Assembly: GCA_913030825.1 (NCBI GenBank)
Contig: CAJWCU010000029.1
Coordinates: 1-32,000 of the forward strand
Length of the DNA: 32,000 bases
Reading direction: 5' to 3'
From: an uncultured Rhodospirillaceae bacterium
Lineage (GTDB): Bacteria > Pseudomonadota > Alphaproteobacteria > Rhodospirillales > Casp-alpha2
The position numbers and the translations under genes were made by a program. Position 1 is the stretch's first letter; each line of letters starts with the position of its first letter. Shown in pieces: positions 3,193-14,755 of this stretch. The notes under the pieces were generated by a model. That model saw nothing but the letters and a program-made list of their open reading frames with translations, had not been told where the DNA came from and ran no database searches.

Positions 3193-4374
3193 TCATTTAA
3201 ATTTTTCAAAGTATCGGTTGATGCCATTCTCGAGAGCATTGACAGCTTTAGAATTACAGGTTTTTTGATCTCTAACGAATGTGTCGATGTCAGCGTCCGC
3301 CATGTTCACGATCTGCCCTATGCCCCCGAGTTTCCCGAACCATCTTCCGACGTCCTGTGATGATTTTGATTTTAACAGGGCGCCCAAGGCGTAGAGGCTA
3401 TATATGCCGTCGAGCGTTTTACGTTTTGCCTGATTGGAAGACGACAAAAATCGCCCGCAAGTTTGTTCAAGTCTCTTTGATGCCTTGATCACGTATATTG
3501 ATGTGAGGCTCTTTTCGGTGTCTTGCTGGTTCAACAGCGCCTTGTAGTTGGAATGATAAAGCCACTCCATGACGTGAGGAGCTTTGAACCTACTCTCAAC
3601 AAAATAAGTTGACTGGGTGTGTCCAGCGATTGGGCCTGACGATGTTTTTAACTGCGTGGTCACAGCGATCGAGAAAAAGACCGAAAACAGGCCCACCGCC
3701 AACCATGCACCGCCTCCGGCCCAATTGCGGCCACCTTTCAATCGCAAATACGTCCGCAATTGTTCGGACGTTTGATTGTGAAGTGCGCGGCCCACGCGCA
3801 GGGTCTTGAAAACAGCACTCCGATAGAAATAGTTGCCGAACAGCCCCATGAGCAAAAATGAAATCGAACCGGATGCCAGAAATCCAAGGATGATCGCGTC
3901 CCCTTTGACAACACCTTGACCCAAAAAGAGGACGGTCAGCAGGAAGTGAACGCTCGAAAAAACCGCAATCAGTGTAAGCGCGTGAATGTGCATTTTCCGA
4001 AAACCAAGCCAGATAGGCCCCAACAGACCCGCGACCCAATTGAAACTGATATTGGATCCCTTGATGGACATTTCCCGCCAGTGAACCCAATACCAGTCAT
4101 GATTTTCGCCGACCAGGTCCGCGGCATGATCTTTGGTCAAGGTCTCACCACGCCATTCGAGGGTGTCCTCAAATTTCGGTGTACCGGATTGCTGGCTTCC
4201 GTCGGACCTTGATGGGGAAGACGCCGACGCTTCATTCGGGTTGATGTTTCGGTTGTCTTCAGTCCGTTCCGAGTCGGCGCTTGGCGATTGGCTAAACACA
4301 AAACCGCAGTATGGACATTCATTCGGCGTACCGTAGGTCCGCTTTGAACATTCTGGGCAATCTATGTGAGACAC
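3193..4374 (-). CDS. Zinc-ribbon / DUF2628-like multi-pass membrane protein with an unknown C-terminal domain
   Basis: GTG start preceded by GGGGGAGG. The N-terminal CPECx(11)CPYC is a zinc ribbon, followed by a low-complexity S/P/E linker. FNWVAGLLGPIWLGFRKMH plus 3-4 hydrophobic helices resemble DUF2628. The roughly 150-aa C-terminal region is unassigned. Confidence 0.65.
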   Translation of the reverse strand: MSHIDCPECSKRTYGTPNECPYCGFVFSQSPSADSERTEDNRNINPNEASASSPSRSDGSQQSGTPKFEDTLEWRGETLTKDHAADLVGENHDWYWVHWREMSIKGSNISFNWVAGLLGPIWLGFRKMHIHALTLIAVFSSVHFLLTVLFLGQGVVKGDAIILGFLASGSISFLLMGLFGNYFYRSAVFKTLRVGRALHNQTSEQLRTYLRLKGGRNWAGGGAWLAVGLFSVFFSIAVTTQLKTSSGPIAGHTQSTYFVESRFKAPHVMEWLYHSNYKALLNQQDTEKSLTSIYVIKASKRLEQTCGRFLSSSNQAKRKTLDGIYSLYALGALLKSKSSQDVGRWFGKLGGIGQIVNMADADIDTFVRDQKTCNSKAVNALENGINRYFEKFK

Positions 4375-4433: not shown

Positions 4434-5528
4434 TCACCTCTTTGGCCAAACCTTCTCCATCCCGTAGACAAAGAGGTCAACGTTCTTACCTGCGCCGTAG
4501 GCCTCTATCGCGAACATCCCCCGCGTCCCGGCCCTGCCACTAAATGACATCTGTACATTTGCGCAACGCTCCAGATTTTTTCTCAATAGATCCGAAAAAC
4601 GCTTCTTACGTTTCGATTTCACCCGCCATGAGACCTTCAATACCGTCGCGTTGAAGCGGTCGGAAACCTCATAGATTTTGCATTGGGCGCCTGCGGGGCA
4701 GTAGGTAGACGTCCAGAAAGGCGATGGCCAATACTTTGGCTCGCGCTTTTTCCCGATGAAATCCTTGAACCTGTTTTCGGACCCGGCCAATAGCCTGGCA
4801 GCCATGTCGCAGGTTTTCATGTGTTGAAGTAGTGCATCATCCGAATAGTCTGTTTGCTCGTTTTTCTTCTTTGAAGACTCCTCGGTTTTCGAAGGGGCAC
4901 TGCTCCCGACTTTCTCCAGCGCGAACCAAGGCGTCGTTCGAATGAGGCGAACAAATTCCAGGTCGCCAAACAGGCTCTTGATTTCCGTGGTCGACAGCTT
5001 GCCGGTGAATGAATACGAACGCTCTCCCTTGAACATCAGATTGAGCCCGTGTTTTTTCGCTAGACTGATCGCTCTGTCATTCGCGACACGCTTGCCGTCT
5101 GATTTTGCGTCTCGAATTGCCAGGAACTCGAACGACCATTTCCCCGCCGAACCGTTCGGCGAGATTTTGGCGTAGAGCATTTCGTTGTTCTTGAAGGCTT
5201 TATCTTTTGTGTCGAACAAAAGCAAAAAACCGGGTGTTGCAAGAGGCAGCACATAGAATGGAAAGATTTTCTTCGATTTCGATTTGTCATCCCGAACGCT
5301 TAGTGTGTAGGCGCCATTCCCGCCTTGGATCAAGACGACTTCACCGGACGGTTTGCCGACTTCATCAAATGATTTGTACTTCCCCGGCAGGCCCCGGATC
5401 GTTGCGAGATCCGATTTCACGATCGTCGGCCGCGGACTTCCGATGCAGCCGTAAAGGAGCATGCCCGCAAGAATGAGTGCCAGGACGGCAAGGCTTCGTT
5501 GCACAAGGAAATTGGCGGTTCGGATCAT
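4434..5528 (-). CDS. Putative lipoprotein (364 aa), function unknown
   Basis: ATG preceded by GGGAAAGAGAG. Signal peptide with a lipobox-like LLYGC (MIRTANFLVQRSLAVLALILAGMLLYGCIGS). It lies 59 nt upstream of, and is co-oriented with, the zinc-ribbon membrane gene, and is divergent from the TIR gene. Confidence 0.6.
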   Translation of the reverse strand: MIRTANFLVQRSLAVLALILAGMLLYGCIGSPRPTIVKSDLATIRGLPGKYKSFDEVGKPSGEVVLIQGGNGAYTLSVRDDKSKSKKIFPFYVLPLATPGFLLLFDTKDKAFKNNEMLYAKISPNGSAGKWSFEFLAIRDAKSDGKRVANDRAISLAKKHGLNLMFKGERSYSFTGKLSTTEIKSLFGDLEFVRLIRTTPWFALEKVGSSAPSKTEESSKKKNEQTDYSDDALLQHMKTCDMAARLLAGSENRFKDFIGKKREPKYWPSPFWTSTYCPAGAQCKIYEVSDRFNATVLKVSWRVKSKRKKRFSDLLRKNLERCANVQMSFSGRAGTRGMFAIEAYGAGKNVDLFVYGMEKVWPKR

Positions 5529-5743: not shown

Positions 5744-8677
5744 ATGAGCACCCCAGAGGCGACCAAAAGAAAGGTTCACCGGTACAAGGCGTTTATCAGT
5801 TATCGCCATGTGGACAGAGACCGCCGTTGGGCCAAGTGGTTGATTGACGGTCTTGAGACCTACCGCGTTCCCAAGGAACTGGTGGCCTCCGGCTATCCCA
5901 CCCGAATTGGTACCCTGTTTCGCGATGACGAGGAAATTCCCGCATCGCCGGATCTTTCCAATCAAATTGAAGACGCCCTGGATGACAGCGAATTCCTGAT
6001 CGTTATCTGCTCGCCCGATACGCCCGCGTCACAGTGGGTCCGGCGGGAGATAACCTATTTTCAGGAGCAGGGACGGGGTGACCATATATTGCCGCTCCTG
6101 GTCGAAGGCGAGCCGTCCGACTCCTTCCCGCCCGAGTTGCGATTTGCAGAGCGTGAAGTGACGGACGCCGACGGAAATGCCTCCAAGGTCCGCGAAGAGA
6201 TTGAACCGCTGGCGGCTGACGTGCGCGCCCGGACGGACGAGCCGAAAAAAGCGACGGAGCACCGCGCCCTGATCCGGATTGCCGCGGGGCTCCTTCGCTG
6301 CCGGTTCGATGACCTTGCCCAAAGAGATGCACAACGCGAAGCAAAACGCAGACGGATGGTTATTTCAGCTGCGGCCACATGCCTTGTCGCCGCCATCTCC
6401 AGCGGACTCTATTGGTGGGATCAAACCCGCATAAAGACGAGTTATTACGCCAACTTCGGAACGAAATGGGGCGTGCCGTTTGGCGTTGGGAGACTGGATA
6501 AAGAGACTCAGAAGCAGAGGCACTCCAGCTTCGCCATAGACACCCGAGGGGGACGCATCGTTGAAATGCGGCATGTCAATGGCCTGGGGTTTCCGCGCAA
6601 ACTTTCTCCACAATCAGCGCACTCAATTTCCCACCCGTGGCTTAATGGAGGTGAAAGGTGGCTATTTGAATTCGCTGACGATGGGCGTCTACGGAAGGTG
6701 AGCCAAATCAACTCGAAAGACCCCCGTAGACAACTCGCCTCGGGCGCCCAGAATTTTCTCGTGTTCAGGTTTGAATACCTCGCCGACAAAAACGCGGTTG
6801 TTTCGTTCAGAACTGAAGGAAGAACCAAAACGCTGGCAGCGGGAGCGTTCACGATAAGTCGTGAAAACAACCGCAACTCCAGCTCGTCTATAACGAGCCA
6901 CACAAACATTGCACAACACAGATTGGCGTTCGACAACTCGGGCTTCATTGTCTCTCGTCAGTTTGAAACCGAGACTGGGCAGCCCACCAGTGAGTTGTCG
7001 GGAAGCTACGGGAGAAAGTATTTCTACGATGAAAGGGGCCTTGTTTCCGCATTTGGGAACTTGAACCGGTCAGGAAGGCTGATGGCTGAACACGGCGGGG
7101 TGATGACGGTTCAATTTCAATACGATACCCAAGGCGACCTCATAAAAACTATCTATCTCGACAAAAAGGGAAGACCGCTGAGAAACCAAAAGTGGCTCCC
7201 GAAAATTGAGTTTAAAAGATCGCCAGTGGGGAATGTGTTGGAAGCATCCTATTTTTCCATTGATGGACGGCTCGGAACCAATGGAGAAGGGTACTCACGT
7301 GAGGTAAAAACTTATGACAGGCACGGCAACATGACCCGCCGCCGTCTTTTCCATGCGGACGGGAATCCCGCGGTGCACGATAAATATGGGTACTCGATGC
7401 AGACGTGGGAGCACAATTTTAGAGGGCAAGTCGTCCGAACCTCTTTTTACGACGACGAGTTGCAGCCTATCGTTCTGCCGAGCCTTGGATTCGCGCAATC
7501 AAAGAAAACATACGATGAGCGCGGAAACACAATAGAAGAATCATATCTAGATACCGGAGGGATGCTGCTCCGTCAAAAATGGGGATATGCGAAAGTCAAA
7601 TTTTCATACGACGCATTGGACCGGATAACTGAAATTATTTATTTCGATGTCGATAACGCGCCAACACAAGAAAGTCGCGGGTTTGCCAGCCTGAAGTGGA
7701 AATATGATGCCCAAGGAAATCGTATTCGTGAGAGTTACTATGACGCGGAAGGAAATTTGACCGAAAACGCTCGTGGAGTGGCGTCGCAGAGCTGGGCCTA
7801 TACGCCCAGAGGGAGCGTAAAAGAGACCAGTTTTTTCAACCAAGCAAACGAATTGGTCACCCCCGGCAAGCCCAATTGGGCGCGGAAGGTTTGGCGATAT
7901 GACCATCGAGGAAACGCAAAGGAAGTCTCATTTTATGGACCAGCTGGACAGCCAGTGCTCTCGAAAAATGGTTGCGCCAAATACGAAAGAGATTTTAACG
8001 ACGCCGGAAAAGTAACGAGAAAAATTTGCGTTGGAACGGATGGGCAACCAAAGCTCGGTACAAACAAGGCTGCTTATACGGAAATCGACTTTGACCAAAA
8101 AGGAAATAAAATCCAAGTTACCTACAAAGACACCCGGGAGCAACTCACACTGTCAGTGTTTGGTTATGCCCGGGTAGTTCAGAAATATGATGAGCTGAGT
8201 CGGTTGACCGAAAGGTCATATTTTGACGTAAATGGGAATTATATTGAACATAAGAAGCAGGGATTCGCGCGCCTGATCAAAAAGTATGACACCTTTGGAA
8301 ATTTGGTCGAAGAAGCATTTATAGGTAAAAATGGTAAATTGATTCAACCGTCAGGCAAAAATTACGCGCGGTTTATTGAAAAATACAATGATCAAAATCA
8401 AACAATCGAAGAAGCCTATTATTCGGCTGATGGTAAACTCGCGATAAATACCGAGTGGGAGTTTGCCCGCAAGCTGACGATCTATGACGATCAGAACAGG
8501 GTCATACGCGAATCTTTTTTCGGCGATGGCGGAGAGCCGATCCTCTACGAAGGCGTCTTCCACCATTTAGAAAGGCAATACAACCAAGATGGAAAATTGG
8601 TTGCGTTGAGGTCGCTGAATAAATTTGGAAAGGTTGTATTTGTAAATCGAGATGAGTCGTTTCTATCGCAATGGTAA
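5744..8677 (+). CDS. Membrane-anchored TIR-domain protein: N-terminal TIR, single TM helix, C-terminal YD-like repeat ectodomain (977 aa)
   Basis: ATG preceded by GGAG. TIR signature YKAFISYRHVDRD...LFRDDEEI...SEFLIVICSPDTPASQWVRREI. A PLAADVR juxtamembrane helix and KRRR precede the hydrophobic MVISAAATCLVAAISSGLYWW. About 750 aa follow, with a regular YDxxGN...Y.D..G...G.A repeat. Confidence 0.85.
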   Translation: MSTPEATKRKVHRYKAFISYRHVDRDRRWAKWLIDGLETYRVPKELVASGYPTRIGTLFRDDEEIPASPDLSNQIEDALDDSEFLIVICSPDTPASQWVRREITYFQEQGRGDHILPLLVEGEPSDSFPPELRFAEREVTDADGNASKVREEIEPLAADVRARTDEPKKATEHRALIRIAAGLLRCRFDDLAQRDAQREAKRRRMVISAAATCLVAAISSGLYWWDQTRIKTSYYANFGTKWGVPFGVGRLDKETQKQRHSSFAIDTRGGRIVEMRHVNGLGFPRKLSPQSAHSISHPWLNGGERWLFEFADDGRLRKVSQINSKDPRRQLASGAQNFLVFRFEYLADKNAVVSFRTEGRTKTLAAGAFTISRENNRNSSSSITSHTNIAQHRLAFDNSGFIVSRQFETETGQPTSELSGSYGRKYFYDERGLVSAFGNLNRSGRLMAEHGGVMTVQFQYDTQGDLIKTIYLDKKGRPLRNQKWLPKIEFKRSPVGNVLEASYFSIDGRLGTNGEGYSREVKTYDRHGNMTRRRLFHADGNPAVHDKYGYSMQTWEHNFRGQVVRTSFYDDELQPIVLPSLGFAQSKKTYDERGNTIEESYLDTGGMLLRQKWGYAKVKFSYDALDRITEIIYFDVDNAPTQESRGFASLKWKYDAQGNRIRESYYDAEGNLTENARGVASQSWAYTPRGSVKETSFFNQANELVTPGKPNWARKVWRYDHRGNAKEVSFYGPAGQPVLSKNGCAKYERDFNDAGKVTRKICVGTDGQPKLGTNKAAYTEIDFDQKGNKIQVTYKDTREQLTLSVFGYARVVQKYDELSRLTERSYFDVNGNYIEHKKQGFARLIKKYDTFGNLVEEAFIGKNGKLIQPSGKNYARFIEKYNDQNQTIEEAYYSADGKLAINTEWEFARKLTIYDDQNRVIRESFFGDGGEPILYEGVFHHLERQYNQDGKLVALRSLNKFGKVVFVNRDESFLSQW
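5783..6118 (+). other. TIR domain (residues ~14-125), candidate catalytic Glu102 at 6047-6049
   Basis: FISY start motif, DDEEI loop and the SQWVRRE motif. In characterised bacterial TIR NADases, the Glu after the conserved Trp is the catalytic position. Assignment is by motif only. Confidence 0.75.
6356..6418 (+). other. Predicted transmembrane helix of the TIR protein (residues ~205-225)
   Basis: A 21-residue hydrophobic stretch preceded by REAKRRR. The positive-inside rule places the TIR domain in the cytoplasm and the repeats outside. Confidence 0.65.
6929..8674 (+). repeat. About 18 tandem protein-level repeats of 32-33 aa (96-99 nt), YD/RHS-like beta-hairpin type
   Basis: (Y/F)(D/N)xxG anchors at residues 396, 428, 460, 492, 524, 557, 590, 622, 654, 686, 719, 751, 783, 815, 848, 881, 914 and 946. 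The spacing is always 32 or 33. The copies are diverged at the DNA level. Confidence 0.8.
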
Positions 8678-8814
8678 TTGGGTCATTTTTCGCGATGTCG
8701 CGTCGCGGTGTTAGACGACTTTGATGAAATTCGATGATCGACCTGGTTCGCGGGCGACCCTAAACTGAAAAATTGATTGTCTGACTGTTAAATCGTATCT
8801 GCGGTAGCAATTCG

Positions 8815-11295
8815 ATGTTGAACCGAAAATTGGATGTAATCGTCTGGGCGATCCTGGGCGGTTTGGCGATTGCCAGTATCGGCCTCAGTTTCTGGGGTTG
8901 GTTTCAGTTCGAGACCGGCCGCCAGACCGAAATGACGGCCGGCGTCTGGTTGGATATCGCGGCGAGGACGATCTCTTTCTTTTTTGCCGAGCGGCCGGAC
9001 GTGGACATCCCGGGCACCGGCGTCGCCGTGCCGCCCGGATATATCTCGCTCAACATTGCTCGCGTACTGGCGCCGACGGCGACCATGGGCGCGATCCTGC
9101 GCGTGGCGATTGAGTTCTTTTTCGGCCAGATCAGGGCCTCCCGCGTTCGGAACATGAAAGGCCATACGGTCGTCAGCGGCCTGTCGGATAACGGTTTGGC
9201 CTTCGCCAGGTCGGAAGCGGCGATGGGGCGTAAGGTCGTCATCGTTGGTCCGGAAGAGAACAGCTCCGCGGCATTTCTCGGCAGCCTTCATGGTTTTGAA
9301 TTCGTGTTGGGCGATCCCAGGGAGATTGAAGTTTTGCGCGCCGCGGGCGTTGGCGAAGCAAGGAATCTTGTGAGTGTTTTGCCGGATGACGGCGACAATC
9401 TCGAGGTCGCCATGCTCGCACGGAAAATCGTCGAGAAAGACCGAAAGGCAGCCGAACCTCTGCTGGTCAACGTCGCGATCGCAAATCGCCGGCTCTGGCG
9501 CCAGATCGTCCGCTCAGACGCGATCGAGCGAAGCCATGGCAAGTTCGAGATGCTGCCGTTCAATTTGGCCATCTGGGCGGCCCGACAGTTCACCTGGCGG
9601 GAGCCGCTTTGGGGGTATGCCGCATTGCGGGGTCAAAAAAAAATTCATGCCGTGTTCATTGGCTTTGACGAATATGCGGAGGCAATGATCGGGCAGATCC
9701 CGCCCGCCTGTGTGGCCGGCGACCTGGAGCGTCCGGCGTTTTCGATTTTGACCGGCCAGGAAAAATTCGCTCGGGGGAGTCTCGCCCAATCCTACGATCA
9801 GTTGGCCGAGGTTTGCGACATTACCTACCATCATTTCGAGCCGCGCATGTTTTCACTGACCGAAACCTTGATGGAAACCGTATCCGAGGTTGGCGAGGTG
9901 ACAGCCGTCTTCGTCTGCCTCGATGATGAAGAAGAATCCCTTGGCGCCGCCATTCATGTTCAAGACGTCATGCACCGCACGGGGCAATGGGGCGCTCCGG
10001 TTTATCTGAGATTGGCTAAGTGCGAGGGCGTTGGCGATCTTCTGGTTGATTCCGCGCGCGCCCGTAGGTTCTCGGAAGTGATACAGCCCTTTGGTGTTGA
10101 AGATGAACTCTGCAGCCTGGATGCTGTCGAAGGCAGGCTCGAAAAATTGGCGAGAGCGATCCATGTCGCTTACGAGGCATCCCGCGATGCCAGTGTGTTT
10201 ATCGATGATCCCGAACGCAGCTCCGCGACCCTTTCCGATTGGCGCAGCCTTCCGGAAACGTTTCGGGTGTCCAACCGGCGGGCAGCCGACAATATTCAAG
10301 CCAAATTGTGGAGTTGCGGCAGCTATGTCCCCGTGGGGACAAAATTGGATGCGTGCAAAGGCTTTCAAATGGCGTCGTCACCGGCAGTGCTGGAAGAACT
10401 GGCAGAACTTGAACACCGGTCGTGGGTCGCCGGGCGCTACGTTGACGGCTGGCAGTATGGCGATCACCGGGATGACCGCCGGAAAAGGCATCCGAACATG
10501 GTTGCCTATTCGGAATTGGATGAACCGACCAAGGAATTCGACAGGGACCAAATTCACTTGATCGACAAAACGCTGATCAACCGGCCGGACAATGCGCCTT
10601 CGAACGAGTTGATCCGAGTGGACCATTGGATCGGCCTCATCGGCAAGAACCTTGTACACGCAGAAGAAGTCCCGTGGATAAAGGAACAATGTACCGCGTT
10701 CCTGTCGACGTTCGTGGAGAAGCGACCCGATTGCCACGTTACTTTGGTCACTCCACTTGCGCCGGGGTCCGACTTTATTCTCGCTTCCGGGGCGCTTGCA
10801 TACCTGAAAGAAAAGGGTGTCCCGCATCGGCTTTTGGTTGTCGCGGCCGTGCCTTCGGAGCACATGATCGAAGACTACCGGGAGAATTTTGAGAACGGCG
10901 GAGTCTGGGATGGGGAGGATTCTGTCCGAAGTGACAAGTCATGGACCGGGGGCGATGGAGATGGTCAGCGCGACTTAATTAGGAAGCACCGGGATAAGAT
11001 CATTGCCTCTGAAGCGACCGAATGGGTTATCGACTTGACGGACGCAGAGGCTGACTACAGAGAGCAGACGAGCCGCCAAGCAGGGTATCGAACGGCAGCA
11101 GACTATATCGCCACCCGGGCGCACACTCTTATTGCCGTGCACCGTCCGGAACCTGGCGACAGGGGGGCAAAAATGGGCGGGACGGAAGACACATTGCGTC
11201 GGCGCCCGGACTTGTTGGTCCGTCGTCCCGATACAATATATCGAAACGTGGTTTTTGATTTGCAGGCGTGTGGAGTGAGCGAAGACGATTTGTAG
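8815..11295 (+). CDS. Membrane protein: 2-TM pore-like module + RCK/TrkA-N-like domains + RyR domain + C-terminal SLOG/LOG-like domain (826 aa)
   Basis: N-terminal hydrophobic helices VIVWAILGGLAIASIGLSFWGWF and ISLNIARVLAPTATMGAILRVAIEFFF flank WLDIAARTISFFF. Rossmann-like GHTVVSGLSDNGLAF...KVVIVGPE...NLVSVLPDDGDNLEVAMLARKI. RyR motif LAELEHRSWVAGRYVDGWQYGDHRDDRRKRHPNMVAYSELDEPTKEFDRDQ. The C-terminal strands HWIGLIG, VTLVTPLAPGSDFILASGAL, LLVVAAVP and TLIAVH...MGGTEDT resemble LOG/SLOG (PGGxGTxxE-like). There is no clear SD, so the start is uncertain. Confidence 0.8.
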   Translation: MLNRKLDVIVWAILGGLAIASIGLSFWGWFQFETGRQTEMTAGVWLDIAARTISFFFAERPDVDIPGTGVAVPPGYISLNIARVLAPTATMGAILRVAIEFFFGQIRASRVRNMKGHTVVSGLSDNGLAFARSEAAMGRKVVIVGPEENSSAAFLGSLHGFEFVLGDPREIEVLRAAGVGEARNLVSVLPDDGDNLEVAMLARKIVEKDRKAAEPLLVNVAIANRRLWRQIVRSDAIERSHGKFEMLPFNLAIWAARQFTWREPLWGYAALRGQKKIHAVFIGFDEYAEAMIGQIPPACVAGDLERPAFSILTGQEKFARGSLAQSYDQLAEVCDITYHHFEPRMFSLTETLMETVSEVGEVTAVFVCLDDEEESLGAAIHVQDVMHRTGQWGAPVYLRLAKCEGVGDLLVDSARARRFSEVIQPFGVEDELCSLDAVEGRLEKLARAIHVAYEASRDASVFIDDPERSSATLSDWRSLPETFRVSNRRAADNIQAKLWSCGSYVPVGTKLDACKGFQMASSPAVLEELAELEHRSWVAGRYVDGWQYGDHRDDRRKRHPNMVAYSELDEPTKEFDRDQIHLIDKTLINRPDNAPSNELIRVDHWIGLIGKNLVHAEEVPWIKEQCTAFLSTFVEKRPDCHVTLVTPLAPGSDFILASGALAYLKEKGVPHRLLVVAAVPSEHMIEDYRENFENGGVWDGEDSVRSDKSWTGGDGDGQRDLIRKHRDKIIASEATEWVIDLTDAEADYREQTSRQAGYRTAADYIATRAHTLIAVHRPEPGDRGAKMGGTEDTLRRRPDLLVRRPDTIYRNVVFDLQACGVSEDDL
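8836..9123 (+). other. Putative degenerate 2-TM ion-channel pore module (residues ~8-103)
   Basis: The order TM1 / short helix WLDIAARTISFFF / loop AERPDVDIPGTG / TM2 mirrors K-channel M1 / pore helix / filter / M2 placed ahead of an RCK domain. No TVGYG filter is present. Confidence 0.4.
10387..10569 (+). other. RyR (ryanodine-receptor type) domain, residues ~525-585
   Basis: Matches the RyR consensus as I remember it: LAExxHxxW...GWxYGxxxDxxxKxHPxxVxYxELxExxKExDR. An upstream half-repeat (LARAIHVAYE...WRSLPETFRVSNRRAADNIQAKL) precedes it. Confidence 0.8.
10621..11214 (+). other. SLOG/LOG-like Rossmannoid domain (putative nucleotide-ligand sensor), residues ~603-800
   Basis: A beta-alpha pattern with a glycine-rich loop after strand 2 (PLAPGSD) and a C-terminal GGTEDT motif, as in LOG/DprA/YpsA/ThsA-SLOG folds. 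Motif-level call only. Confidence 0.5.
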
Positions 11296-11322
11296 ACATT
11301 GGAACAGCCACGAGCCGATCGT

Positions 11323-12363
11323 TCAGAACAAATTGGCATGCACCTGTTGTCTCGCGGCCTGCCTCGCAAGGCCCAGAAGGCGGTCAACCATTTCCGGTCG
11401 ATCAAGTTGCGCGAGAACTTCCAACTCCTTTTGCGTGACGTCGGCGCCAATATTGGAACGCAGCCATTCCCGATCCAGTTTAATGTCAAATCGCTCGTAC
11501 TTGAATAGCGGCGGCGCGGCCGGCAGTTCGTTCGCCAATGTTCCAGCCTCACTGTCGATCTCCCAGGGGTTCTGACTGGTTCCCAACCACTGGAGGATCG
11601 CCTGCGCCTGCCACATGGTGTCGGTGATCATGGATTCCAGCGCGTGGATCGCTTGAAGGCTGCTCGGCAAGCGTAAGAATGACGTGACTGTATGCTGCGG
11701 CGTGTAGATCCCCGTACCCACGGAAAATATCGACAGGTTTTCAGGGCCTGATGGCCAGCCGTACCCGTAGGCTTTTGACGTAGCCATCGTCGCCAGCAAC
11801 AGGGCTGGGTTGTTGTATGGGCTGACCCCACCGTCAACGAAGAGTCCGCGAAATTCCTCGGTAACCTGGATTTCTTCTGGTTCAAAGTAGGTCGGCGCCG
11901 CCGTGCTTGCTCGGAGAATCTGGGCAATCTCGTAGTCGCGGTTTGCGAAGGCACCTGGATCATCTTCAGGCGGGTCGAAATATTTTGACCGCGGGTTGTT
12001 GTGAAAGACCCAGGGGCTCCCCGTGTCGATCCGCTTTGCCGCGATAGCCAGTCCTGTTCGCACCTCGTCGGACCCCAGCCTGCGGTGTCCGATCATTTTC
12101 CGGATGATGCGATCTACATTCTCGCCTTTGAACTTCGGAGAGAGGATGCCCCCGTGCCACCGAGAACCCTCAAACGCATCTTTTGCCAGTATGCGATACG
12201 TTTCAAGCAGGTCCGCAACAGAAAACCCGAGTGCAAGACCCGCCGCGATTGTCGCGCCCGCGGATGTTCCGCCGATCAAATCGAAATAATCACACAGCCG
12301 GAAATCCGGGCCACCGCCTTCTTGATTGCGTAGTACGTTTTCGACCTCTTCTAGAAACCCCAA
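11323..12363 (-). CDS. Patatin-like phospholipase (CapV-like size); the true N-terminus lies upstream of the track start
   Basis: GTSAG (GxSxG) at 12256-12270 and FVDGGVSPYNNP (the catalytic Asp of the DGG motif). The track start is a TTG at 12363. The same frame stays open upstream to 12486 and encodes KRVLSIDGGGVRG (12373-12393), the patatin oxyanion-hole motif. No ATG, GTG or TTG precedes that motif in frame. Convergent with the 826-aa gene, with a 27-nt gap. Confidence 0.85.
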   Translation of the reverse strand: MGFLEEVENVLRNQEGGGPDFRLCDYFDLIGGTSAGATIAAGLALGFSVADLLETYRILAKDAFEGSRWHGGILSPKFKGENVDRIIRKMIGHRRLGSDEVRTGLAIAAKRIDTGSPWVFHNNPRSKYFDPPEDDPGAFANRDYEIAQILRASTAAPTYFEPEEIQVTEEFRGLFVDGGVSPYNNPALLLATMATSKAYGYGWPSGPENLSIFSVGTGIYTPQHTVTSFLRLPSSLQAIHALESMITDTMWQAQAILQWLGTSQNPWEIDSEAGTLANELPAAPPLFKYERFDIKLDREWLRSNIGADVTQKELEVLAQLDRPEMVDRLLGLARQAARQQVHANLF

Positions 12364-12486
12364 CGCGACGATTCCTCGGACGCCGCCGCCGTCGATCGAA
12401 AGGACGCGTTTAGGTCCCGGGCCGAATAAGTGATCTTCAAGATTTGGAATGATATGTCCCCCACACGCGCGCCATTTTACGAGCGC

Positions 12487-12669
12487 TTAGATATCGTCTT
12501 TCGGTGAATTCTTGTGTTTTGCGGTATTCCGCGCGGACTTGATGGCGTTTTTGAGGTTATTGGAGAAGAACTCAATCGTCTCTGCGTGTTCGATGAGGAC
12601 ATCGTATGCCCTATCGTTTGGTGATTGATGATTGAAGGCTTCCTGAATAACCAAGGCTGCGTCCAGCAT
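12487..12669 (-). CDS. Small hypothetical protein (60 aa), doubtful
   Basis: ATG ORF MLDAALVIQEAFNHQSPNDRAYDVLIEHAETIEFFSNNLKNAIKSARNTAKHKNSPKDDI. Its TAA stop is in the same frame as the patatin ORF. No recognisable domain. Confidence 0.3.
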   Translation of the reverse strand: MLDAALVIQEAFNHQSPNDRAYDVLIEHAETIEFFSNNLKNAIKSARNTAKHKNSPKDDI

Positions 12670-12926
12670 TTCGCCAGCCGCCTTTAAGACGTTGCCATCA
12701 TGGAGCCCTTACATAATTTCGCCCATTGTCGGGCCATCGGATTCAGCGAAAGCTCGGTCCGCTTGAGGGTGCATTTGCACGACGTTCCCGCGCTCTTCTT
12801 CATCTTTCGCCATCTTTGCGCTTCGTCCTTATTGAATGTTCGTTAAGAGAATCCCCCCCAACTGATCAGGTCTTCGCTAACAATTCTCTTGGCTGGGTCT
12901 GAGCGGCCAGCGTGACGCCCAATGAG

Positions 12927-13013
12927 TGACCCGCCCCTCACTGACTGGTCCAGTTAGAATGTTAGTGCATTGACCTGCCCCCACTGACTGGTCCGGTTTG
13001 AATGTTAGTGCAT
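12927..13013. repeat. Tandem duplication (44 + 43 bp, ~90% identical) of an IS terminal repeat
   Basis: Copy A (12927-12970): TGACCCGCCCCTCACTGACTGGTCCAGTTAGAATGTTAGTGCAT. Copy B (12971-13013): TGACCTGCCCCCACTGACTGGTCCGGTTTGAATGTTAGTGCAT. Copy B overlaps the last codons of the transposase fragment. Confidence 0.8.
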
Positions 13014-13640
13014 CATCCGTTTTTCCTCCATGGGGATGGTGCTTTCCGGTGCCGGCGGCCTGTATCCGAGAGCTGAGTGCGGTCGCTTCGTGTTGTAATG
13101 CTGTCGCCACTGTTCGATGACGATCTGGGCTTCTTTTAGGCTGTAGAAGATTTCGCCATTCAGTAGCTCGTCGCGGAACCTGGCGTTGAAGCTCTCGCAG
13201 TAACCATTCTCCCTGGGTGAACCCAGTTCGATATAGGCAACCTTCGAACCGACGGCGTTGATCCACTGTCTGACGGCTTCCGCGATGAACTCCGGGCCAT
13301 TGTCAGAGCGAATATAAGCCGGAACGCCTCGGATGATGAACAAGTCAGTCAGGGCATCGATTACATCTGCCGAGTTCAGCTTGCGCTTTACCCTGATCGC
13401 GAAGCACTCCCGACTGAACTCATCAATGATGTTGAGCGTTCTACAGGCAAGGCCATCTTCCGTTCAGTGGTGAACGAAGTTGTACGACCAGATGTGGTCA
13501 ACGTGCTGTGGCCTAAGGCGAATACACGATCCGTCAATCAGCCACAGCCGACCGCGCTTCGGCTGCTTTATGGGAACCTTCAGCCCCTCACGGCGCCACA
13601 GGCGTTCGCCCCGCTTGTCGTTCAGCTGCCGCCCGGCTCA
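12971..13640 (-). mobile_element. Truncated insertion-sequence remnant (rve/DDE transposase type, IS3-like end starting TGACCTGCCCCC)
   Basis: Only the 3' two-thirds of the transposase ORF and one terminal repeat are present. The 5' part (OrfA and the opposite end) is absent, and similarity is lost beyond about 13640. Confidence 0.7.
13005..13637 (-). pseudogene. Integrase-core (rve) transposase fragment with an in-frame TGA
   Basis: The frame reads AGRQLNDKRGERLWRREGLKVPIKQPKRGRLWLIDGSCIRLRPQHVDHIWSYNFVHH*TEDGLACRTLNIIDEFSRECFAIRVKRKLNSADVIDALTDLFIIRGVPAYIRSDNGPEF...YNTKRPHSALGYRPPAPE. The TGA is at 13464-13466 and tandem TGA TGA at 13638-13643. Where related transposases carry a conserved WSYDF (as I recall it), this copy reads WSYNF. 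Confidence 0.75.
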
Positions 13641-14062: not shown

Positions 14063-14755
14063 TCATCCCAGCACGTCGCGGGCAACCTCCTCGGTGGTTC
14101 GAATATCGGCAAAACAGCTGGAAAGGCTGACCAGGCTCGTGAAATGGTCTTCTTTTGTCAGAGCCGCCGTTGCATCAGACACGACAAGAACGCGATAATT
14201 GCGCATCATGGCGTCACGTGCCGTAGACTCGCAGCACACATTGGTTGCCACACCCGCAATAATTATATTTTCAATGCCACGTTCTGTGAGTAATGGCTCC
14301 AAATCGCTGGCTCCGGGTGCAAATGGGGAAAACCGGAACTTTTCAAGTCTAACATCTTCAGGGGCAGTCTCGAGCTCCGAAAGGAGGGCGTGATCAGGGT
14401 GGCCTCGTCCCAGGCGGGTCATGTGCTCCCGCGCTTTTGCTTGGCTAAAGAAACGTTCATGGTACTCCGGCCAAGTCGAAACGCCATTTGCCCCCATGGT
14501 ATTCTGGACCCACACCACGAGGCCGCCACGCGAGCGTAGCGTGCTGGCCAGCACGTTGACGTTTTCAGATACCGCCGCAAGGTCAGGCACCAAATCACGA
14601 TAATAGCCCTGCACATCGACGACCAAGAGAGCCGTCTTGGCCGGTTCCAATCGCTCATATACGTGCAAACGGCCTCGCTTTTCCATAACGCGCTGGTCGC
14701 CGCGTCGGAGCGGGTTAACGGGGCCATCTGTAGCGTGGCTGGGGGTACGTTTCAC
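14063..14755 (-). CDS. Isochorismatase-family cysteine hydrolase
   Basis: GTG start with GAAGGAGG about 9 nt upstream. Motifs ALLVVDVQGYY, VVWVQN and IIIAGVATNVCCESTARDA (catalytic Cys region). Confidence 0.8.
   Translation of the reverse strand: MKRTPSHATDGPVNPLRRGDQRVMEKRGRLHVYERLEPAKTALLVVDVQGYYRDLVPDLAAVSENVNVLASTLRSRGGLVVWVQNTMGANGVSTWPEYHERFFSQAKAREHMTRLGRGHPDHALLSELETAPEDVRLEKFRFSPFAPGASDLEPLLTERGIENIIIAGVATNVCCESTARDAMMRNYRVLVVSDATAALTKEDHFTSLVSLSSCFADIRTTEEVARDVLG

Follow-up and report, generated by a model that had tools for sequence, protein, structure and literature searches.

A candidate Thoeris-like signalling locus in a marine bacterium, with a membrane-anchored TIR protein, a channel-like RyR and SLOG protein and a patatin phospholipase

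About 29 types of Thoeris effector have been catalogued next to signalling TIR genes (Yirmiya et al. 2025, bioRxiv 10.64898/2025.12.03.692087). Among them an ion channel effector (type X) was validated, 'SLOG Patatin' and 'SLOG and 4TM' effectors were tested without a phenotype, and none of the listed effectors is named as containing an RyR domain. In type I Thoeris the SLOG domain is the signal receptor. Phage proteins with an RyR domain bind 2'/3' cyclic ADP-ribose (2'/3'cADPR) with nanomolar affinity or cleave it (Lopez Rivera et al. 2026, PMC13232231). In RyDEP, a small soluble protein of viral counter-defence, the catalytic dyad consists of H75 and D117, with W78 stacked against the adenine and H100 holding the phosphates, and these residues are reported to be conserved across the family and in the R12 domains of animal ryanodine receptors (PMC13232231). 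Both preprints raise a possible interaction between a cADPR-type signal and the R12 region. Here, we describe three adjacent large genes in a 32,000-nt stretch of bacterial DNA (the window, to which all coordinates refer unless they are given with the name of another locus). On balance, and judging from sequence, we lean towards reading them as a Thoeris-like TIR signalling system built of membrane proteins, with a TIR protein that senses the periplasm, two nucleotide sensors (RyR and SLOG) and two membrane-damaging outputs (a channel-like protein and a lipase).

The three genes are a candidate TIR receptor (gene 1; 5744-8677, + strand; 977 amino acids (aa)), an 826-aa membrane protein (gene 2; 8815-11295, + strand) and a patatin-like phospholipase (gene 3; 11323-12475, - strand). 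They lie within a low-GC island (GC 0.45-0.57 over ~2.5-15.5 kb; flanks 0.62-0.66), between prophage packaging genes on the left and an insertion sequence (IS) remnant on the right. All three, with the domains and motifs listed in the original prediction for this DNA, were recovered from open reading frames (ORFs), Pfam and structure models. As in Thoeris, a TIR gene with the catalytic Glu adjoins a gene that joins a SLOG receptor to a candidate membrane-damaging output. A patatin is linked to SLOG, and the build is modular, with one TIR clade occurring beside different effectors.

Several features set the locus apart from the described Thoeris types. The TIR protein of the window is membrane-anchored and carries a large outer repeat domain, whereas the described ThsB proteins are not presented in this way. 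Gene 2 adds tandem RCK and RyR domains that are unnamed in the effector lists of Yirmiya et al. 2025, its SLOG domain is fused to a channel-like protein and not to a patatin, and there are three genes instead of two. Unlike type I and type II Thoeris, respectively, the locus has no SIR2 and no Macro match in five scanned island ORFs (genes 1-3, 3193-4374 and 4434-5528; Pfam, NCBIfam and PADLOC). CD-NTase was likewise unmatched in these ORFs, for which the absence of all three families stated in the original prediction holds. The TIRs listed for type X (ThsK) are of a different type (DUF1863-like), and the validated 'Ion channel' effectors of that type (IMG 8023446598, 2611628341 and 643630790) were set against gene 2 by label only. 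The original claim that no described system has this set of parts is now too strong, since the general idea is already known from the variety of the ~29 Thoeris effector types, which include an ion channel and a SLOG Patatin. In the literature that we searched, we found no description of a host-encoded RyR protein as a TIR partner, of an RyR fusion to tandem RCK and SLOG domains, or of a membrane-anchored, Toll-like receptor layout of the TIR protein.

Gene 1 was delimited by its ORF, Pfam matches and hydropathy. Residues 17-143 (5792-6172, + strand) match Pfam TIR_2 (E 9e-15), and ThsB_TIR also matches. The WVRRE motif noted in the original prediction is intact (W98 to E102): the codon of the catalytic Glu102 lies at 6047-6049 inside SQWVRRE, in a column without variation across all 19 TIR domains located near RyR genes. 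A hydropathy scan identifies a single hydrophobic helix at residues ~205-223 (6356-6412, + strand), and the run RDAQREAKRRR stands just before it. Thus, by the positive-inside rule, the TIR domain is expected to face the cytoplasm. The ~750 residues past the helix, with weak RHS_repeat and YD_repeat signatures (Pfam and NCBIfam), are predicted to lie outside the cytoplasm.

An orthologue of gene 1 with the same repeats adjoins a gene-2 homologue in locus L003, and the order of TIR domain, one transmembrane helix and variable C-terminus recurs in the TIR neighbours at L002, L003, L007, L009, L013, L021, L024, L037 and L040. The C-terminal domains of the TIR neighbours include YD repeats (the window and L003), PG_binding_1 (L002) and WD40 (L021 and L037). 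On the predicted topology, the layout of most neighbouring TIR proteins is the arrangement of a Toll-like receptor, reversed along the chain. GC shifts inside the operon (7000-9000), from 0.445-0.49 in the repeat-coding 3' half of gene 1 to 0.55-0.60 in gene 2. Such a shift agrees with exchange of the outer sensor domain, a part that varies among the TIR neighbours elsewhere. We also considered gene 1 as a polymorphic toxin of the Rhs type and rejected this, as its TIR domain is N-terminal and on the cytoplasmic side and it has no C-terminal toxin module.

Gene 2 lies downstream of gene 1 on the same strand, across a gap of 137 nt that holds no terminator-like site. Its product was analysed with Pfam, AlphaFold2, Foldseek and phmmer on the ORF. 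It runs from two long helices with a short helix between them (membrane module; residues 1-112, 8815-9150), through a tandem RCK (TrkA_N-like; residues ~113-435, 9151-10119) and an RyR (R12-like) domain (residues ~440-600, 10132-10614), to a YpsA-like SLOG domain (residues ~601-826, 10615-11292), all on the + strand. Both the spacing and this series of transmembrane, RCK-like, RyR and SLOG (GGTEDT) domains agree with the original prediction. Pfam places TrkA_N at residues 119-209 and RyR at 524-588, and the NCBIfam Kch and TrkA models match far below their cut-offs. The full-length AlphaFold2 model, built on seven homologues, has a helix (2-35), a short helix (42-54), a loop and a helix (77-112), followed by two Rossmann-like domains. 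Its best Foldseek match in the PDB is the full-length tandem-RCK protein GsuK (E 1e-9), followed by TrkA, MthK and Slo1. The short helix, the loop and a second helix with an 'ARxxAP' motif are conserved in the gene-2 family, and the membrane-RCK-RyR family comprises 646 representative clusters at E <= 1e-30. In the model, the topology of the membrane module resembles a channel pore. RCK-gated tetrameric cation channels (GsuK, MthK, Kch and BK/Slo1) and TrkA gating rings resemble gene 2 in having two long helices with a short helix between them and then tandem RCK domains, whereas the gene-2 family is without a TVGYG-like filter and carries the additional RyR and SLOG domains.

The RyR domain of gene 2 is recognized by Pfam PF02026 (E 3.6e-14; 53.2 bits against a gathering score of 27.4) and has two parts, a degenerate first half and then a canonical repeat. 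With phmmer it matches RyR1, RyR2 and RyR3 chains (E down to 5e-24; best stretch ~residues 980-1060) and also 3NRT of B. thetaiotaomicron. We identified four candidate ligand residues, H534 (10414-10416), W537 (10423-10425), H559 (10489-10491) and D576 (10540-10542). Their spacing of +3, +25 and +42 equals that of RyDEP H75, W78, H100 and D117, a comparison made through residue spacing and a Gordonia phage homologue and not through a direct alignment to the DyoEdafos RyDEP. This homologue, ScarletRaider gp61, is a small RyR protein that has the tetrad at equal distances and likewise a domain in two parts. Across a seven-protein alignment (A1) the tetrad of gene 2 does not vary, and most of ~45 RyR domains in the loci retain it. 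Gene 2 therefore shares with RyDEP the PF02026 (R12) domain, the His/Trp/His/Asp spacing of 3/25/42 and the two-part layout of the small phage RyR proteins. It differs in that its RyR domain is host-encoded, part of an 826-aa membrane protein and linked to a TIR gene. Because the RyDEP ligand residues are kept and the TIR link holds in family members without SLOG, the RyR domain appears to be at least as good a candidate sensor as the SLOG domain. The original prediction had made SLOG the reader of the TIR signal; the SLOG fold stands, and the sole focus on it is revised.

Two actinobacterial loci, L024 (6214-11022) and L036 (6059-10914), have a small standalone RyR protein between the TIR gene and the membrane-RCK-RyR gene. 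In these small proteins the second His is replaced by Ser, and they could buffer or regulate the signal from within the system.

SLOG-like domains also occur in TRPM channels such as TRPM2. The likeness of gene 2 to animal ryanodine receptors lies in the match of its RyR domain to the repeat region of RyR1-3 and in the idea of an NAD-derived nucleotide acting on a cation channel. The pore and the architecture of RyR and TRPM2 are entirely different, gene 2 is ~6 times smaller than an RyR subunit, and there is no homology beyond the R12 repeat. The link between cADPR and gating is inferred in the animal and the bacterial case alike.

The C-terminal 231 residues of gene 2, modelled alone, gave a confident structure (predicted local distance difference test (pLDDT) 88; predicted template modelling score (pTM) 0.87). 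As anticipated in the original prediction, Foldseek returns SLOG proteins, with YpsA (2nx2) as the top and sole strong match (E 3.6e-5, probability 1.0), followed by DprA chains (ranks 2-4) and, in the midst of weak non-SLOG matches, the Moco carrier protein (rank 10). YpsA, DprA and the Moco carrier protein are members of the SLOG superfamily. When the domain was searched by sequence in the PDB and Pfam, either as single sequences or as profiles of 6 and 18 members, noise alone was returned (Muskelin and SpoU methylase). Homologous standalone proteins have weak Pfam matches (E 0.002-0.1), solely to the SLOG families YAcAr, YpsA and DprA. Its placement thus follows from the fold comparison together with the weak matches of these small proteins, and the domain is a distinct, unmodelled SLOG family. 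The loops G-x-x-G, PLAPGSD and GGT (GGTEDT) are present in gene 2. In an 18-member alignment the G, A-x-G-x-D and GG columns are invariant and the T nearly so, and all are intact in the window.

Gene 3 is convergent to genes 1 and 2 and matches Pfam Patatin (E 1e-22). Its best PADLOC matches are the 'Effector phospholipase' models (1e-32) of CBASS, the cyclic-oligonucleotide-based antiphage signalling system, and it scores 83.7 bits against NCBIfam CBASS_lipase NF041079, below the cut-off of 200. PADLOC made no system-level call, and neither did NCBIfam; the expectation that PADLOC would find nothing held at this level and failed for the patatin, which matches CBASS effector models. The gene resembles CapV of CBASS in its patatin fold and in having GGGxRG, GxSxG and DGG encoded in the DNA, the first of these out of frame with the likely ATG. 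It differs from CBASS in its setting, with no CD-NTase among the scanned island ORFs and with a subfamily that travels with TIR and SLOG genes and not with cyclases. The same subfamily (35-65% identity) adjoins gene-2 homologues in L001, L003, L005, L007 and L013.

All three patatin motifs named in the original prediction are present in the DNA, but the first of them is cut off from the start of the gene. GTSAG and DGG lie inside a 346-aa uninterrupted ORF from TTG 12363. GGGVRG lies upstream of this TTG, the first in-frame ATG/GTG/TTG; its frame stays open as far as the stop at 12487-12489 but offers no start codon. The likely ATG (12475-12473) is one base out of frame, with an extra G in the five-G run at 12458-12462, and removal of one G from this run gives the N-terminus MARVWGHIIPNLEDHLFGPGPKRVLSIDGGGVRG, which matches the N-termini of homologues. 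Gene 3 is frameshifted, mis-sequenced at the homopolymer or read from a rare start. A 60-aa ORF without a family match (12487-12669, - strand; MLDAALVIQEAFNHQSPNDRAYDVLIEHAETIEFFSNNLKNAIKSARNTAKHKNSPKDDI) ends 11 nt before the patatin ATG.

Evidence that these genes belong together comes from other genomes. A first search returned six full-length gene-2 homologues (26-52% identity), full-length homologues being uncommon, and a TIR gene, a lipase or a STAND NTPase stood beside all six. Another 36 loci, spread over Proteobacteria, Acidobacteria, Actinobacteria, Firmicutes, Bacteroidota and one archaeon, came from scanning 185,579 species genomes. The loci were translated in six frames and searched with iterated hidden Markov models for each module, and TIR calls were checked against Pfam. 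Many loci are short contigs, which makes absences soft, and some source assemblies fragment genes. A TIR_2 gene is found in 14 of 33 distinct membrane-RCK-RyR loci, usually adjacent (P ~2e-17 under an assumed, generous background of 1 TIR gene per 1000 genes). Two further loci (L001 and L018) have a STAND NTPase that starts with DUF4062, described in a 2026 preprint as a TIR-like NADase making ADP-ribose (ADPR), which brings the total with a TIR or TIR-like gene to 16 of 33.

Unsupervised clustering of the neighbours yielded only three recurrent partner types, namely TIR genes, STAND NTPases (7 loci) and the patatin subfamily of gene 3 (7 loci). The co-occurrence that the original prediction called for is found far beyond chance for TIR and patatin genes alike. 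All three families are together in L003, L007 and L013, and pairs of them occur in at least 10 further loci from different phyla. The TIR link also holds in family members without SLOG (L021, L024, L029, L036, L037 and L040). In addition, small or differently built RyR proteins adjoin TIR-WD40 or TIR-STAND genes in L026 and L028.

Individual loci show how the set varies. In the cultured Duganella qianjiadongensis CY13W (L021, 4846-9494), the stop of a gene for a TIR-TM-WD40 protein, TM being the transmembrane helix, overlaps the start of a short membrane-RCK-RyR gene; this short form of gene 2 has no SLOG domain, and the locus has no patatin. L005 (1-9946) encodes a TIR-STAND-FGE-sulfatase protein, a TIR-reverse transcriptase, a STAND-TPR protein, a protein that combines a SLOG-like segment and a weak DUF4231/SLATT match, and a patatin. 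It also encodes a gene-2 homologue, in which the SLOG domain no longer has its motifs. The locus has the look of a dense conflict island, and the separate SLOG protein may stand in for the decayed domain. In the sphingomonad loci L016 (1962-9057), L017 (1-3067) and L023, two tandem membrane-RCK-RyR paralogues lie by a CitMHS/TrkA_C transporter with no TIR gene in view, which hints at housekeeping functions for some members of the family.

The two candidate sensors of gene 2 keep different company. The patatin adjoins the gene-2 homologue in 6 of 14 loci where this homologue has the C-terminal region, versus 1 of 19 loci where it does not (Fisher p = 0.026). For a reciprocal scan from the patatin subfamily, 80 metagenomic loci were fetched; none of the 80 had an RyR gene, and a TIR gene was present in 13 of the 41 loci of at least 6 kb. 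Six of the patatin loci encode a 200-260-aa homologue of the gene-2 C-terminal domain directly after the patatin, and in two of the six a TIR gene follows at a short distance (directly in L119, after ~1 kb in L061). A patatin-SLOG fusion is found in L095, and in L005 and L077 the SLOG domain is fused to a region with a weak DUF4231/SLATT match, under the Pfam gathering score. In L126 a fragmented orthologue of gene 1 is divergent from a standalone homologue of the gene-2 SLOG domain. The SLOG module tracks the patatin, and the TIR gene tracks the membrane-RCK-RyR module. Gene 2 looks like a fusion of two separately occurring modules, an RyR channel-like unit that occurs with TIR and a SLOG unit that occurs with patatin and TIR.

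Starting from the domains, motifs and conserved linkage reported by these tools, we infer the following course of events. The periplasmic repeat domain of gene 1 would sense an event at the envelope, for example phage attack, and the cytoplasmic TIR domain would turn NAD+ into a cyclic ADPR-type signal. This signal would bind the RyR domain of gene 2, its SLOG domain or both. Binding could move the RCK ring such that the membrane module opens or is perturbed, with ion leak and depolarization as the consequence, and the SLOG arm could activate the patatin, which would degrade membrane phospholipid. The infected cell would then stop growing or die before phage release. More tentatively, and with considerable doubt on our side, bacterial membrane-RCK-RyR proteins might be ion channels in which the RyR (R12) domain mediates gating by cyclic ADP-ribose isomers of TIR origin.

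Several observations weigh against this account. RyR domains can be enzymes or sponges and not receptors (PMC13232231), and the RyR region of the full-length model has pLDDT < 50, for which reason we base no structural argument on it. The K+ selectivity filter T[VI]G[YF]G is absent from gene 2, and one weak look-alike (TIGLG) was found among 33 family members. The channel-like nature claimed in the original prediction is matched by the fold of RCK channels and not by a filter; the membrane module is a candidate pore, and the name 'channel' is owed to the fold alone. About half of the membrane-RCK-RyR loci show no TIR gene in the available DNA, and some membrane-RCK-RyR genes sit with ordinary transporters (L016, L017 and L023). 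No relatives of gene 2 were found in a scan of IMG/VR, and the region owes its status as a defence island to its neighbours only. The frameshift may leave the lipase arm inactive in this window. Patatin homologues are also split into 2-3 pieces at L001 and L012, and such disruption may stem from selection against a toxic lipase, from phase variation at the homopolymer or from assembly error.

On the TIR side, the six closest relatives of the gene-1 TIR and transmembrane region have no RyR neighbour and are found in mobile-element-rich regions. Pairing is thus not obligate from the TIR side, and the gene-1 TIR protein can stand alone, possibly as an NAD-depleting effector. Such solitary relatives favour the main rival explanation, which we regard as unlikely: the TIR protein would both sense and kill on its own, by NAD+ depletion, and gene 2 would not be a signal-gated effector at all. 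Gene 2 would then read falling NAD+ or rising ADPR through its RCK, RyR or SLOG domains, or buffer or degrade the TIR products as a RyDEP-like glycosidase or sponge, preventing auto-immunity or resetting the system. The patatin would be the only true downstream effector or part of an unrelated second system. In its favour, cADPR isomers are cleaved or sequestered by RyDEP-type RyR domains, whose catalytic His/Asp dyad is intact in gene 2. GsuK-type RCK rings bind NAD+ and ADP, to judge from the titles of the best Foldseek hits, and the DUF4062 partners are plain NADases making ADPR. However, a sponge or hydrolase with a regulatory task only would have no need of a membrane module or a tandem-RCK ring. 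Hundreds of clusters (the 646 representatives) preserve the fusion between RyR and a channel-like module, and the SLOG domains of Thoeris act as receptors.

The many membrane-RCK-RyR genes without TIR neighbours, some of them by transporters (CitMHS with TrkA_C in L016), favour another explanation, that of ordinary signalling instead of immunity. Here the messenger of an envelope-sensing TIR protein would gate a channel in response to osmotic, contact or stress cues, and the patatin would remodel lipid. The variable outer domains (PG_binding_1, WD40 and YD repeats) could sense the cell's own envelope, and gene 2 is recognized by no defence model. We nevertheless judge this improbable, in view of recurrent partners that are hallmarks of conflict systems (STAND NTPases, TIR-STAND, TIR-reverse transcriptase, DUF4062, a SLATT-like region and a CBASS-type patatin), the setting in a low-GC island beside a prophage and an IS remnant, the patchy distribution across phyla and the repeated decay of the lipase gene, as expected of a toxic effector. 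That three unrelated cargo genes came to lie side by side by chance in a horizontally acquired island seems to us very improbable. The sharp change in GC from the 3' half of gene 1 (0.45) to gene 2 (0.55-0.60) and the convergent, frameshifted patatin count in its favour, but the three families recur in L003, L007 and L013 with pairs in at least 10 further loci, stop and start codons overlap in L021, and the 26-52% identity among gene-2 homologues argues against one recently transferred element.

The surroundings of the three genes provide context. The prophage packaging module at the left edge (1-2107, - strand) consists of the N-terminus of a large terminase, which runs off the window start, a small DUF5681-like protein and a ParB-N6 DNA methylase (683-2107), all on the - strand. 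To the right, the island is bounded by a remnant of an IS3-family integrase (Pfam rve_3; 13005-13343, - strand), which we place outside the system. Just beyond the stop of this integrase fragment, at ~12925-13015 (- strand), are two imperfect tandem copies of a ~42-nt unit, gcactaacattc[a/t]aac[c/t]ggaccagtcagtg..., probably a duplicated IS end. Two genes without an assigned function lie just upstream of the TIR gene (3193-4374 and 4434-5528, - strand), one encoding a membrane protein with a zinc ribbon and DUF2628 and the other a lipoprotein-like product. They have no homologues at any related locus and were rejected as members of the system. A hydrolase of the isochorismatase family is encoded near the system both in the window (14063-14755, - strand) and in L002 (15597-16247). 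We considered the window copy as a nicotinamidase tied to TIR chemistry and dropped the idea, as its best NCBIfam match is RutB-like and its PncA match is weak. A promoter and terminator scan gave a result no better than shuffled sequence, and comparison of the flanking DNA with plasmids returned short ABC-transporter matches only. Identical copies of genes 1 and 2 are recorded in Tara Oceans and other marine assemblies, and thus the host is a marine bacterium.

If our reading is correct, the locus would represent a new class of TIR/Thoeris effector, a channel-like protein with RyR and SLOG domains alongside a lipase. It would also be the first host-side use of an RyR domain in nucleotide immune signalling, where the domain has so far been seen only in phage counter-defence. 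The swappable outer domains of the TIR proteins (YD repeats, peptidoglycan-binding and WD40) suggest that envelope attack is sensed, in a Toll-like layout. The action of cADPR on animal ryanodine receptors has been debated for a long time, and a small bacterial R12 protein with a membrane module beside a candidate cADPR-making enzyme would make the relation between R12 and cADPR testable. Should membrane-RCK-RyR proteins be RyR-gated channels, the source of their signal would be a TIR receptor with the sensor outside, one transmembrane helix and the TIR domain inside. In that case nucleotide-to-channel signalling by way of an R12 domain would have a minimal working model in these loci, and the R12 repeat of animal ryanodine receptors would descend from a prokaryotic receptor for cADPR-type immune signals.

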